37,209 bases of DNA from Verrucomicrobiota bacterium. Lineage in GTDB: Bacteria; Verrucomicrobiota; Verrucomicrobiia; Limisphaerales; UBA1100. The translations under genes were made by a program, and so were the position numbers. This document shows, piece by piece, positions 31,591 to 35,307 of the stretch. The notes below the pieces were generated by a model. That model made no database searches, was not told the origin of the DNA, and saw nothing but the letters and a program-made list of their open reading frames with translations. The stretch's first letter is position 1; the number at the start of each line of letters is the position of its first letter. The stretch covers positions 1 to 37,209 of the forward strand of contig JAPKDK010000003.1 in the NCBI GenBank assembly GCA_028872645.1, read 5' to 3'.

Positions 31591-34500
31591 ATGAAACGAT
31601 TCATTCCAATGCTGGCCGTGCTGCTGGCCGCTTGTCACACGCCGGACCCAACGAGTTTCGGCGCGTACGCCAAGTATATTTCCAACGCCGAGAACGGTAA
31701 AAATGGCAACCAGCCCTTCACCGCGCTCATCCCCAAACGCGCCACCGGCGCGGAGCAATTCCTCAAGGAACATCCGCAATACGATGGACGCGGAGTCGTC
31801 GTCGCCATTTTTGATACCGGCGTGGATCCTGGCGCGCCCGGATTGCAAACCACCCCCGACGGCCGCCCCAAAATTATTGACGTTGTGGATGGCTCCGGCA
31901 GCGGCGACGTGCGCACCACCACCGAACGCGAACTCAAGGAGGGTAAACTTACTGGCCTCACCGGTCGCACGCTCACGCTGCCCAAAGCTTGGAAGAGCCG
32001 CGATAAAAAATACCGCGTCGGGGTGGTGGAAGCGTGGCGCATTTTCCCCGCTGAACTAGTGGGCCGCCTCAAGGCCAAACGCCGCGAACCGTGGGACATC
32101 CAACAGCGCAAACGCACGGAGGGAATTGACCGCGCCATCGCCGATTGGGACAAAGCCAACCCCAAACCCACGAAGGAGCAAATGCTCGAACGCGATGACC
32201 TCGCTGCGGGCCTAATCCAGCTCAAAACTCTGCAAACTCAATACCGCGACCCCGGCCCCATTTTCGACTGCCTTGTTTTTCACGATGGCGAACGCTGGAA
32301 TGCGAGCATTGACACCGATGAGGACGGCGATTTCGCTAACGAAAAACTAATGACGAATTTCCGCGTGAACCGCGATTATGGAACCTTCGGCGGCGAAGCG
32401 CAGATGAATTTCGCCACCAACATTTATCGCGATGGTGATCTGCTTTCGGTCGTCGTCGATTGCGGCGCGCACGGCACGCACGTCGCCGGCATCGTGGCGG
32501 CGCATTTTCCCAAGCAACCCGAACTCAACGGCCTCGCGCCCGGCGCGCAAATTGTTTCCGTGAAAATCGGCGACACCCGCCTCGGCTCCAGCTCCACCGG
32601 CACCGGCCAAATGCGCGGGCTCATTACTGTTTTGCAAAACAAATGCGACCTCATCAATATGAGCTACGGCGGTCCCTCGCCCCGCCCGAATGTCGGCCGG
32701 ATTTATACTGAGTACGCCAACATCGTGAACCGCCACAGCGTCATTTTTTGCGCCAGCGCGGGCAACAACGGCCCCGCGCTGTCTACCGTCGGTTCCCCCG
32801 GCGGCAGCACCAGCGCCTTGCTCGGCATTGGCGCGAGTGTCACGCCGCAAATGATGCTCGATCAATACGGCATGCGCGCCACACGCAAGGATATGCAATA
32901 CACGTGGAGCTCGCGCGGACCCGCGCTCGATGGCGACCTCGGCGTGGACCTCACCGCGCCCGGCGGCGCGATTGCGCCCGTGCCAAACTGGCTGCTCCGC
33001 CGCAACACGCAAATGAACGGCACGTCAATGTCCTCCCCCAACGCCTGCGGAAACATCGCCCTGCTCCTTTCTGCGCTCAAGGCGGAGAAGACCAACCGCT
33101 CGCCCCATCGCGTGCGCCGTGCTCTGGAAAATACCGCCAAGCCCATCGCCGGGCTTTCGCCGCACGAACAGGGGCGCGGGATGATCCAAATTCACAAGGC
33201 GTACGATTGGCTCAAAAATAATCCGGCCATTACAAAAAGTGATTTCAAATTTGACGTCCGCATCACCTCTCGCGGCAATGCGCGCGGAATTTATTTGCGC
33301 GAACCGTTTGAGGTCAACCGCACGCATTCGGTTTCGGTGACATTGATTCCTACTTTCCATCGAGACACAAAACCCTCCGAGAAAATTAATTTTGAAAAAC
33401 GTTTGCTGCTCCATTGCAAAGCCGACTGGGTGGAACACGCCAGCCAAATCCTGCTCGCCAACGATTCCGAACGCATCACGGTAAAAGTCGATTCCACCGG
33501 CCTCGCGCCCGGCGTGCATTACACCGAAGTGGTAGGCACCGATGCCGATGCGCCCCAACGCGGCGCGCTTGTGCGCGTGCCGGTCACGGTGATTATTCCC
33601 GAAAAAATTGAGGACGCGAAATGGAATGAAACGCTCACCTTCAAGGGCGGCGACACCACGCGGCGGTTTCTCGCCGTGCCGATGGGCGCGACGTGGGCCG
33701 ACCTCCACATGCGGACGATTAAGGCCAGCACGGATCAGCGAATCACAATGCACGCGGTGCAGTTGTTGCCGGGGCTCTCCTTCCGCGCGGGTGACAAGCG
33801 GCGCTACGTCACTTTGCGCGAAGGCACGGAGCGCGTGGAGAGTTTCGCTGTCACCGGCGGCCGCACGTTGGAGCTTTGCCTCGCGCAATATTGGTCCAGC
33901 CTCGGCGAGGCGGAGGCGGAGTTCACGCTACAGTTTCACGGGCTGCGTCCAAGCAGCGAAGTGGTTTCGCTTGATGGAAATGATTTAACCGACAGCGTGG
34001 TGGTCACCGCGCCGTTGCGCGATGAGCGTGTGGCGCCTTCGGGCTCATTCAAAACATGGCGGCGCGCGGTGCGACCGGCCAAGTCGGAAATCCGGCCGCT
34101 CGATCCCGTGCGCGATCGGTTGGATGATGAGAAACAAATCCACGAAATGATTCTCACGTACAATTTCGATCAGGCCTCAAGCGCGCGTGTGACGCCCGTG
34201 CTCACGGTGGATTACAACGATGGCTCGGATTATTTTCTCGAGTCCGGCGTGTGGCAATTGTTCGACGCACAAAAACGCCGGCTCGGCAGCGGCACTCACA
34301 ATGATCCCGTGAGCCTCGTCAAAGGCAAACACGTGCTGCGCTATCACGTGCGTCATCCCGACAAAAAATTGCTCGAGCGTTTTCAGCACACGCTGCTGAT
34401 GCTCGATCAACCCATTTCGCGCGCCGTTTCGCTCGCCTTCCACGAACACGCCGAAGGGGCGATCCGCGGCAGTTCGCGTTTTGCCGCGCGCACGCTTCGG

Positions 34501-35307
34501 CGCGGCGATTCGGTACGGCTGCACTTCGCCATTCCCAAGCACGGGCAACTGCCTTCCGGCGTGAAGCCCGGCGACATTTTGCGCGGCACGATTCAATACG
34601 GCGGCAACACCGATGACCTCAACGGCGCGGGCCAAAAGCCCGGCGGTTTCCCCGTGCAATACATCGTGCCCGCCGCGCGCAACTCATTCCCCTCCACCAA
34701 ACCCAAAGTGGTGCCGCCCAAAAAACCAGAACCTAAAAAACTCAGCGCCGAAGAAAAACTCGCTGAAAAAAATCTCAAGCTCGAACTCGCCAAGCTTAAG
34801 CCACTTAAGCCAGCTAAGGACGCCAAAGAAATCCTGAAAGTCGCCGACACCGTTCTCAAACAACTCGACCTCGACGGCCTTCAGCAATACCTCGGCACGC
34901 CCGCCGATGAAACTGCCGCCGACAAAGATGCTTTGAAAAAGAAATGGGATGTTCAAAAGGCAGCGCTCATCACCGCCCTCCGCGCCCAAGCCCGAGCGCG
35001 ACTCGCTCAAGCCAAGGCCGACAAAAAATCCATCGCCGCATTTGAAGCCGCTTGGGATAAACTCATCCGCTGGAACCCCGCCACCGATGCCGCCAACGCC
35101 GAGCTGAATCTTGAACGCGAACTGCTGCACAATCGTCTCGGAAACGCTGTGAAAATTCTTACCGCCAAGATTTCCAAATCCCCCGCCACCCGCGCTCATT
35201 ACGAAAAACGCGCCGATTTCCTCGGCAAACTCGGCTGGACAGAATGGCAAGCCCACGAGAAAAAATCCCTGCTCGTGCGCTTCCCAAGTGAGTATCCACC
35301 GTTTTAG
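31591..35307 (+). CDS. Tripeptidyl-peptidase II (TPP II)-like S8 subtilase, predicted lipoprotein
   Basis: 1238 aa from ATG 31591. MKRFIPMLAVLLAAC lipobox (Cys15). LIPKRATGA...YDGRGVVVAIFDTGVDPGAPG (D75), GAHGTHVAGI (H294), SAGNNGP, YTWSSRGP, MNGTSMSSPNACG (S479), ELCLAQYWS, C-terminal LGW...FPSEYPPF. Colinear with eukaryotic TPP II as I recall it. Confidence 0.92.
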   Translation: MKRFIPMLAVLLAACHTPDPTSFGAYAKYISNAENGKNGNQPFTALIPKRATGAEQFLKEHPQYDGRGVVVAIFDTGVDPGAPGLQTTPDGRPKIIDVVDGSGSGDVRTTTERELKEGKLTGLTGRTLTLPKAWKSRDKKYRVGVVEAWRIFPAELVGRLKAKRREPWDIQQRKRTEGIDRAIADWDKANPKPTKEQMLERDDLAAGLIQLKTLQTQYRDPGPIFDCLVFHDGERWNASIDTDEDGDFANEKLMTNFRVNRDYGTFGGEAQMNFATNIYRDGDLLSVVVDCGAHGTHVAGIVAAHFPKQPELNGLAPGAQIVSVKIGDTRLGSSSTGTGQMRGLITVLQNKCDLINMSYGGPSPRPNVGRIYTEYANIVNRHSVIFCASAGNNGPALSTVGSPGGSTSALLGIGASVTPQMMLDQYGMRATRKDMQYTWSSRGPALDGDLGVDLTAPGGAIAPVPNWLLRRNTQMNGTSMSSPNACGNIALLLSALKAEKTNRSPHRVRRALENTAKPIAGLSPHEQGRGMIQIHKAYDWLKNNPAITKSDFKFDVRITSRGNARGIYLREPFEVNRTHSVSVTLIPTFHRDTKPSEKINFEKRLLLHCKADWVEHASQILLANDSERITVKVDSTGLAPGVHYTEVVGTDADAPQRGALVRVPVTVIIPEKIEDAKWNETLTFKGGDTTRRFLAVPMGATWADLHMRTIKASTDQRITMHAVQLLPGLSFRAGDKRRYVTLREGTERVESFAVTGGRTLELCLAQYWSSLGEAEAEFTLQFHGLRPSSEVVSLDGNDLTDSVVVTAPLRDERVAPSGSFKTWRRAVRPAKSEIRPLDPVRDRLDDEKQIHEMILTYNFDQASSARVTPVLTVDYNDGSDYFLESGVWQLFDAQKRRLGSGTHNDPVSLVKGKHVLRYHVRHPDKKLLERFQHTLLMLDQPISRAVSLAFHEHAEGAIRGSSRFAARTLRRGDSVRLHFAIPKHGQLPSGVKPGDILRGTIQYGGNTDDLNGAGQKPGGFPVQYIVPAARNSFPSTKPKVVPPKKPEPKKLSAEEKLAEKNLKLELAKLKPLKPAKDAKEILKVADTVLKQLDLDGLQQYLGTPADETAADKDALKKKWDVQKAALITALRAQARARLAQAKADKKSIAAFEAAWDKLIRWNPATDAANAELNLERELLHNRLGNAVKILTAKISKSPATRAHYEKRADFLGKLGWTEWQAHEKKSLLVRFPSEYPPF

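Follow-up and report, generated by a model that had tools for sequence, protein, structure and literature searches.

A 37,209-nucleotide (nt) stretch of a Verrucomicrobiota genome (assembly GCA_028872645.1, contig JAPKDK010000003.1, positions 1 to 37,209; hereafter the window) carries the gene of a bacterial member of the tripeptidyl peptidase II (TPP II) family. The gene, at 31591..35307 on the plus strand, is an uninterrupted open reading frame (ORF) of 1238 amino acids (aa) plus a stop codon, encoding the precursor of a TPP II-family subtilase, and is the only copy of this family in its own genome. Its product, the query in all comparisons below, is very probably an intact, exported and probably lipid-anchored subtilase of a marine Verrucomicrobiales host, with predicted catalytic competence. 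TPP II is the textbook giant protease of the eukaryotic cytosol: it has no signal peptide, forms a 6-megadalton spindle of stacked dimers, releases tripeptides and trims the products of the proteasome. The bacterial side of the family was found to be large, diverse and, judged by N-terminal signals, almost uniformly exported.

The domains and catalytic residues of the query are listed below (residue numbers are those of the precursor; model positions are those of the predicted structure).

31786..33174, plus strand: Peptidase_S8 (PF00082), residues 66-528, E = 1.2e-45
31813-31815, plus strand: catalytic Asp75, S8 domain
31816..32469, plus strand: insert of 218 residues between Asp and His, aligning with 3LXU 113-290, with long helices at model positions 116-178
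32470-32472, plus strand: catalytic His294, S8 domain
32764-32766, plus strand: oxyanion Asn392, S8 domain
33025-33027, plus strand: catalytic Ser479, S8 domain
33247..33594, plus strand: TPPII_Ig-like-1 (PF21223), residues 553-668, E = 1.8e-29, 102.9 bits
33640..33906, plus strand: TPPII_GBD (PF21316), galactose-binding-like, residues 684-772, E = 6.2e-22, 78.1 bits
34012..34566, plus strand: TPPII (PF12580), residues 808-992, E = 2.3e-38, 132.1 bits
34681..34740, plus strand: Lys/Pro-rich linker, residues 1031-1050, predicted disordered, predicted local distance difference test (pLDDT) below 50 at model positions 993-1012
34747..35280, plus strand: C-terminal all-helical domain, about residues 1053-1230, with helices at model positions 1015-1192

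All four Pfam families, S8 and the three specific to TPP II, scored above their curated cut-offs; NCBIfam gave merely sub-threshold subtilase matches. Asp75, His294, Asn392 and Ser479 were invariant in the 121 homologues aligned (121/121). Among solved structures, Drosophila TPP II (3LXU, E = 1.2e-172) was the sole strong match, ordinary subtilisins reaching 1e-13 or weaker; the alignment covered query residues 41-975 and 1077-1235, the second stretch against 3LXU 1192-1351. A structure model of residues 39-1238, built on a 56-sequence alignment, had a mean pLDDT of 90.9 and a predicted template modelling score of 0.88, and the Lys/Pro linker was its one long low-confidence stretch. When the model was searched with Foldseek, 3LXU came top (E = 1.3e-76) with template modelling scores of 0.82 on the query (TMq) and 0.81 on the target (TMt), and the runner-up had a TMq of 0.24. 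An earlier note, made from the letters alone, had described a full-length TPP II homologue. All the features that it named were located, including Asp75, His294, Ser479, the long insert, the Lys/Pro stretch (residues 1034-1050) and the helical C-terminus, with ELCLAQYWS at residues 761-769 within TPPII_GBD, LGWTEW at 1214-1219 and FPSEYPPF at 1231-1238. Its reservation that the similarity might be confined to the S8 core fell away, as all TPP II-specific domains are covered, three of their families lie above cut-off, and the 3LXU alignment and the fold agree. A pseudogene was ruled out by the lack of internal stops, and a fusion or split gene by the 120 of 120 listed homologue matches that were similar in length and had the same domains.

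Eukaryotic TPP II (3LXU, human TPP2) thus shares with the query the domain order, the full-length fold, an Asp-His insert of about 200 residues, two central domains rich in beta structure, the TPPII domain, identical catalytic residues and a helical C-terminal domain that ends in a conserved W..RFP..Y.PF motif. Both regions that build the eukaryotic oligomer, the insert and the C-terminal domain, are conserved in the query and were modelled with confidence. Other exported S8 proteases, such as Vpr (8JMW), the streptococcal C5a peptidase ScpA and dentilisin PrtP, also have C-terminal beta-rich domains and a similar core, but only the catalytic core is in common (TMq at most 0.24) and no TPP II-specific domain is present. 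Two differences set the query apart from eukaryotic TPP II: a conserved export signal where the eukaryotic enzyme is cytosolic and has no signal, and Ser335/Gly361 where the eukaryotic enzyme has a pair of glutamates.

The export signal lies at the very start of the reading frame.

31553..31581, plus strand: weak sigma-70-like match TTGGCA-17-TATCCT, 9/12 consensus matches, 10 nt before ATG 31591
31591..31635, plus strand: lipoprotein signal peptide MKRFIPMLAVLLAAC, with n-region KR, h-region FIPMLAVLL and lipobox LAAC
31636..31713, plus strand: tether from Cys15 to the conserved TPP II N-terminus, 26-27 residues, rich in Pro, Gly, Asn and Ala

The peptide MKRFIPMLAVLLAAC has Lys2 and Arg3, a nine-residue hydrophobic core and the sequence L-A-A-C, with the Cys15 codon at 31633-31635. 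It was judged by a lipobox rule (positively charged n-region, hydrophobic h-region, [LVI][ASTVI][GAS]C, Cys at about 15-35). Of 965 candidate starts followed by 100 aa or more in any of the window's six frames, 5 satisfied this rule, two of the five being this gene's own lipobox. The start at 31591 was favoured by comparison. The pattern M-K-[RS]...L-A-[AG]-C was kept in 9/9 proteins of the query clade (94-65% identity) and in seven loci of named Verrucomicrobiales metagenome-assembled genomes (MAGs), a conservation that spans proteins P0002-P0009 and loci L003-L012. The NCBI model of an 89% identical orthologue (P0005) has the same start and 1238 aa. Residue 43 is the first of FTALIPKRATG, the conserved N-terminus of TPP II, and the distance from Cys to the Pro-Lys anchor in it is 32 residues in 9/9 members of the clade.

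The frame is, however, open from further upstream: the longest version of the ORF opens at 31477, and gene callers gave 1257-aa models from the equivalent of 31534 for P0002-P0004 and P0006. A true start at 31477 or 31534 would turn the hydrophobic stretch into an internal membrane anchor or make it irrelevant. We regard this as very improbable. Codon 31477 falls within the divergent MscS gene (30576..31499, minus strand). In loci of 92% identity the upstream frame is similar, as it runs across a short spacer and into the MscS gene, and even there the Met equivalent to 31534 is Thr in L003, and L011 has Ile in place of another Met upstream of that. The 65% clade (L007, L008, L010 and L045) has a wholly different upstream frame and retains MKRMAPMLA.ILAGC. 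A start at 31534 would put the Cys at position 34, where the lipobox rule is still satisfied. The earlier note had proposed the lipoprotein start and had named a start downstream of the lipobox as the finding that would overturn it; MKR..C, with its Cys at position 15, is conserved in orthologues of 92-64% identity, as is the lipobox, and the frame upstream is not. As a match from a consensus scan alone, the sigma-70-like sequence would, if real, fit a nearly leaderless mRNA without the upstream ATGs.

Prolipoprotein processing enzymes are encoded in the same genome (3.08 Mb, 425 contigs, 92.8% complete): Lgt (PF01790, 228.3 bits, 1e-67) and LspA (PF01252, 121.8 bits, 4.9e-35). An exported protein that is cut by signal peptidase I, soluble in the periplasm or secreted, with an incidental Cys, would resemble most bacterial homologues, which have ordinary signals with Ala-x-Ala-like sites and no lipobox. 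This is improbable for the query, where the Cys stands in a canonical L-A-[AG]-C context invariant across the whole clade, the linker behind it is constant at 32 residues to the anchor, other clear lipobox clades are likewise long-linkered (36-39 residues), and both Lgt and LspA are present. Several points weigh against a lipoprotein starting at 31591. No Shine-Dalgarno motif was found upstream of ATG 31591. Cys15 lies at the shortest length that the lipobox rule permits. The signal calls were made by a hydrophobicity heuristic applied upstream of the conserved Pro-Lys anchor together with that rule. The LolA profile (PF03548) had no match in the genome, which is 92.8% complete, so that sorting to the outer membrane is only a possibility; among 14 control genomes this profile matched just 5, two of them archaeal.

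The query is not alone in being exported. An N-terminal hydrophobic segment was present in 193 of 203 bacterial homologues: 191 passed the heuristic, and P0175 and P0203 have an evident signal that the pattern missed. The remaining ten are five fragments and five proteins that start 19 residues or fewer before the anchor; one of the ten, P0097, matches the interior of a longer, signal-bearing relative (P0096). In named species-representative genomes the segment was found in 34 of 35 full ORFs. Clear lipoboxes recur in separate clades, namely the query clade, P0099/P0103/P0106/P0115/P0120, P0075/P0091 and P0087, with the 36-39 residues from Cys to anchor given above in those other than the query's. 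Ser/Pro-rich linkers occur at the Phycisphaerales loci L023, L041 and L043. Sequences from named eukaryotes lack a hydrophobic segment and begin only a few residues ahead of this anchor. Export thus appears, from sequence, to be the near-universal rule for bacterial TPP II homologues.

In the mechanism that we propose, the Sec system would export the precursor, Lgt would add diacylglycerol to Cys15 and LspA would cut before it. The mature enzyme of 1224 residues would then be tethered to a membrane by about 26 linker residues, on the side of the periplasm or at the cell surface, and may degrade proteins or peptides there, most likely for nutrition or the turnover of envelope proteins.

The two residues by which the query departs from the eukaryotic enzyme are the following.

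32593..32595, plus strand: Ser335, facing Drosophila Glu312 in the 3LXU alignment (GSSSTGT vs GSMETGT)
32671..32673, plus strand: Gly361, facing Drosophila Glu343 in the 3LXU alignment (SYGGPSP vs SYGEHAN)

We take both positions to be the 'double-Glu' residues (human Glu305 and Glu331) that bind the free amino terminus of the substrate and limit cleavage to tripeptides. Among representatives of at least 1100 aa (n = 156), the Glu/Glu pair occurred without a signal in 78 and with a signal in 40; Ser/Gly with a signal occurred in 33, plus 2 borderline cases whose signal was recognised by eye; Ser/Glu with a signal in 2; and a gap/Gly with a signal in 1. All 78 sequences that are signal-less and of eukaryote type therefore had Glu/Glu, and the 35 of the query's type all had Ser/Gly; the two positions behave as a unit. 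No further alignment column split the Glu/Glu from the Ser/Gly groups at the 80% level. Gly also stands at the second position in two generic subtilases, the own-genome paralogue L062 (SNSWGG) and L047 (NMSLGG), and in the Opitutales-type relatives described below (NASWGG), so the query has the ordinary subtilase state there. A mixed Ser/Glu sub-clade of Phycisphaerae type (P0014, P0018, P0020, P0029, P0035, P0044, P0050 and P0085; GSNSCATG, SYGEPSADPD) was also seen, which could be an intermediate or an independent gain.

Because Ser335 and Gly361 replace Glu/Glu, we lean slightly towards a protein that is not a strict tripeptidyl exopeptidase and that may cut endoproteolytically or with a looser register. 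The reading opposed to this, a true tripeptidyl peptidase (EC 3.4.14.10) that has merely been relocated and in which other acidic residues stand in for the glutamates, seems unlikely. In its favour, the fold is kept throughout, with insert, central domains and C-terminal domain, and the pipeline of the Joint Genome Institute calls many homologues tripeptidyl-peptidase-2; against it stand the 78/78 and 35/35 split, the lack of any co-varying column, and the second-position Gly that is shared with two generic subtilases and the Opitutales-type family. Two points tell against the loss of strict specificity: other residues could take over the binding of the N-terminus, and no paper on the role of the two glutamates was found in the open literature. 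'Full-length homologue' does not imply 'same enzymatic specificity'. The suggestion in the earlier note that an exported version has a different job is strengthened by the near-universal export signals of bacteria and by the absence of the Glu/Glu pair from the query.

Two kinds of bacterial relative help to place the query. The homologue of Blastopirellula marina (P0480), one of two bacterial homologues cited in print, has the same architecture, Ser/Gly motifs (GDTRVGSNS, NMSYGG) and an N-terminal signal, and falls in the same clade; unlike the query it belongs to Planctomycetota and has an ordinary signal without a lipobox. In the portion of the literature on this homologue that was available, its signal peptide and missing glutamates are not mentioned. 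TPP II of Planctomycetaceae type (P0095, P0097 and P0191 of Thalassoroseus pseudoceratinae) is likewise exported and of the same architecture, but has kept both glutamates (GSMETG, NMSYGE) and groups with eukaryotes in the best trees.

A more distant sister family, centred on Opitutales, was also found. An ORF of genome G137 (locus L048, 3901-7833, minus strand) encodes 1310 aa with S8, TPPII_Ig-like-1, TPPII_GBD and a sub-threshold TPPII match, and is 30% identical to the query over its full length. About 96 relatives (P0383-P0478), of about 1300 aa and at 34-61% identity, carry the names Actomonas aquatica, Synoicihabitans lomoniglobus, Opitutaceae, Opitutia, Opitutales, Puniceicoccaceae and Verrucomicrobiota, with two proteobacterial MAGs. 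Nearly all have an N-terminal hydrophobic segment. Their motifs are NASWGG and mostly GGSSY, and many have no precomputed PF12580 match. Like the query, these proteins have S8 with TPPII_Ig-like-1 (some also TPPII_GBD), signals and the second-position Gly; unlike it, they are only about 30% identical to it, PF12580 is weak or absent and the first position is mostly Tyr, which is also the residue of subtilisin.

For phylogeny, the signal-less group was named by cluster look-ups: noctuid moths, Endogone, Chlamydomonas, Peronospora, Fonticula, Pristionchus, Paulinella, Closterium and a eukaryotic transcriptome set. All named signal-less clusters were eukaryotic, and the named clusters opposite them were bacterial or metagenomic. 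Eukaryotes formed one side of a branch in all five IQ-TREE analyses, with supports of 100, 100, 99, 100 and 94. A FastTree analysis of 147 rows (156 minus 9 that lacked the N-terminal Asp column) did not recover the signal-less label as a single group, but gave a split with support 99 between 64 rows, 60 of them signal-less, and 83 mainly signal-bearing rows. The query fell in a Ser/Gly clade with Planctomycetota, Phycisphaerae, Limisphaerales and B. marina (support 98-99). 'TPP II proper', comprising the Ser/Gly bacteria, the Glu/Glu bacteria and the eukaryotes, was set apart by several fully supported nodes from intermediate Verrucomicrobiota and the Opitutales-type family.

With the LG+G4 model and 64 rows, eukaryotes grouped with bacterial Glu/Glu sequences (98), as they did in a posterior mean site frequency (PMSF) tree of 39 rows (99); the order of the three groups was unresolved with LG+G4 and 52 rows. 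The 39-, 52- and 41-row trees are of hand-picked subsets. Groups named after the trees were seen were compared by the approximately unbiased (AU) test. On 41 rows the tree with all Glu/Glu sequences together was 19.8 log-likelihood units above the free-search tree (p-AU 0.935), and therefore the best tree known to us has one Glu/Glu group. On 39 rows a split of the 26 TPP II-proper bacteria from eukaryotes plus three divergent proteins was rejected (difference 246.6, p-AU 1.6e-68). Without a root, then, eukaryotes and bacterial Glu/Glu sequences are neighbours, and the intermediate lineages and those of Opitutales type join the tree far from eukaryotes. The placement that we favour puts bacterial and eukaryotic Glu/Glu forms together in a single derived group. 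Should the root lie, as we infer, among the divergent bacterial lineages, eukaryotic TPP II would be nested in an exported bacterial radiation. Such a root is supported by the subtilisin-like residues of those lineages at both positions and weakly by generic-subtilase outgroups, both of which fell outside the 97-supported Glu/Glu group (2 rows in a quick tree, on branches of 7.6-10 changes per column).

Some results run counter to this arrangement. Eukaryotes joined the Ser/Gly group (90) in the LG+G4 tree of 60 rows, and Ser/Gly joined five bacterial Glu/Glu rows (84) in the PMSF tree of 41 rows, so that the order of the three groups within TPP II proper shifted between trees. A root on the eukaryotic stem, compatible with every test that was run, would unite all bacteria in one clade and turn the generic residues into reversals.

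Xu et al. 2019 (PMC6713707), in the portion of the article available to us, propose that TPP II is of eukaryotic origin and was transferred to two Planctomycetes. The transfer put forward there, from plants to this pair of bacteria, does not fit under either root, because no bacterial sequence nests within a eukaryotic lineage. By the same token, a fairly recent acquisition of the query gene from a eukaryote, for example a plant or alga, is scarcely credible. Besides the proposal for the two planctomycete homologues then known, the rarity of the gene in its own phylum would speak for it (3 of 300 other sampled genomes, all at 27-30% identity). Against it stand the single eukaryotic branch in every IQ-TREE analysis, the FastTree split, the mutual identity of bacterial homologues (38-66%), which outrank all eukaryotes in searches, and a gene order that is kept across two genera. 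The question raised in the earlier note, whether TPP II moved between eukaryotes and bacteria of the Planctomycetes-Verrucomicrobia-Chlamydiae (PVC) group, is touched by these trees in that eukaryotes appear as a single group beside the bacterial Glu/Glu forms, inside a wider bacterial radiation.

Eukaryotic TPP II may tentatively be seen as a domesticated bacterial export protein, a scenario that we hold to be plausible but somewhat short of even odds. The family would have arisen in PVC bacteria as exported, sometimes lipid-anchored, open-cleft subtilases; the Glu/Glu ruler would have evolved once, in an exported lineage of planctomycete type; and a stem eukaryote would have acquired this form, lost the signal and made of it the giant protease that works in the cytosol downstream of the proteasome. 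The window protein would then be a living example of the early open-cleft stage, and the likely direction of transfer would be the reverse of the published proposal. The two-residue switch between Ser/Gly and Glu/Glu makes the origin of tripeptidyl specificity testable in a natural scaffold. If the spindle-building C-terminal and insert regions have the same function in bacteria, marine PVC bacteria may have protease assemblies of megadalton size in their periplasm or on their surface.

Some homologues are already labelled 'tripeptidyl-peptidase-2' in databases. In print, as far as the available portion of PMC6713707 goes, bacterial homologues are limited to two planctomycetes, explained as transfers from eukaryotes. 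Judged by titles and abstracts, the open literature held nothing on a verrucomicrobial TPP II protein. Nor did the open literature yield a mention of near-universal export signals, of lipoprotein clades, of the division into Ser/Gly and Glu/Glu types, of the Opitutales-type family or of the nesting of eukaryotes. The remark in the earlier note that bacterial homologues are uncommon holds for the printed literature, to the extent that it was available; metagenome collections contradict it. When residues 39-1238 were searched exhaustively against 1.84 billion representatives, 1097 proteins were obtained at E <= 1e-30. All listed metagenome matches had the TPP II domain set, both for the query (120/120) and for a Glu/Glu bacterial query (120/120), and those listed matches with a name belonged to Verrucomicrobia, Limisphaerales, Planctomycetes, Planctomycetaceae, Pirellulaceae or Phycisphaerae. 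Confirmed loci in species-representative genomes numbered 45; of these, 44 belong to the same taxa, and the remaining one, in a betaproteobacterial MAG, is a generic subtilase. An architectural variant, P0054 (1404 aa, from a Planctomycetes MAG), is of the Ser/Gly type and is fused to many tetratricopeptide-repeat Pfam families, which gives it a different C-terminal architecture.

Within the phylum the gene was sparse. PF12580 was matched in 2 of 301 sampled genomes, own genome included, and the central domains in 4 of 301, the other three at the 27-30% identity already given. The gene was present in 7 of 8 other genomes of its own genus, in 6 of 15 of a second genus of the same family, in 0 of 7 of three further genera, and in 2 of 30 other families of the order; many of the close-relative MAGs are incomplete. 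Bacterial homologues are thus numerous in metagenomes but patchy, being spread over Planctomycetota, Phycisphaerae and a small number of Verrucomicrobiota. As to habitat, contigs from the runs of six studies, besides possible sources, held at least half of the sampled words, and these runs were labelled marine, seawater or 'metagenome'. The protein is a candidate enzyme for marine protein breakdown, as one of an abundant and unstudied type of exported peptidase in marine Verrucomicrobiales and Planctomycetota.

The neighbours of the gene in the window are as follows.

29470-30555, plus strand: PDZ-domain protein
30576..31499, minus strand: MscS-type mechanosensitive channel, the divergent neighbour, whose start overlaps the longest version of the TPP II ORF
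35399-36433, plus strand: class II fructose-bisphosphate aldolase

The order PDZ, MscS (divergent), TPP II, aldolase is common to locus L008 (3779-10970), where TPP II is 65% identical; this shared order at 65% identity indicates vertical inheritance since the two genera split. A Pirellulaceae locus (L019) has different TPP II neighbours, with a PSCyt2/PSD1 protein directly upstream of the homologue. None of the neighbours at the query, L008 and Pirellulaceae loci points to a partner or substrate, which weighs against the role proposed above.

Some other features of the window were recorded. A 428-aa ORF at 28157-29443 (plus strand) had no Pfam match and accounts for the AT skew of 0.27 in its stretch; it has an N-terminal hydrophobic segment, a long low-complexity middle rich in Lys, Ala, Glu and Thr, and C-terminal LTEEQ / LTDEQ motifs that resemble those of periplasmic LTxxQ (Spy/CpxP-like) proteins. 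At 21672-26277 (minus strand) a PSCyt1/PSCyt2/PSD1 (DUF1549/DUF1553) protein of 1032 aa adjoins a DUF1501 protein of 491 aa, a pair typical of PVC bacteria. Scans of the window for Rfam families and tRNAs gave 0 matches, and a terminator scan gave 9 against a shuffle mean of 8.1, no excess. About 1.5 kb at 6100-7588 holds no ORF of at least 150 aa, and the GC content at 4001-6000 is 0.63, compared with 0.49-0.60 elsewhere in the window.

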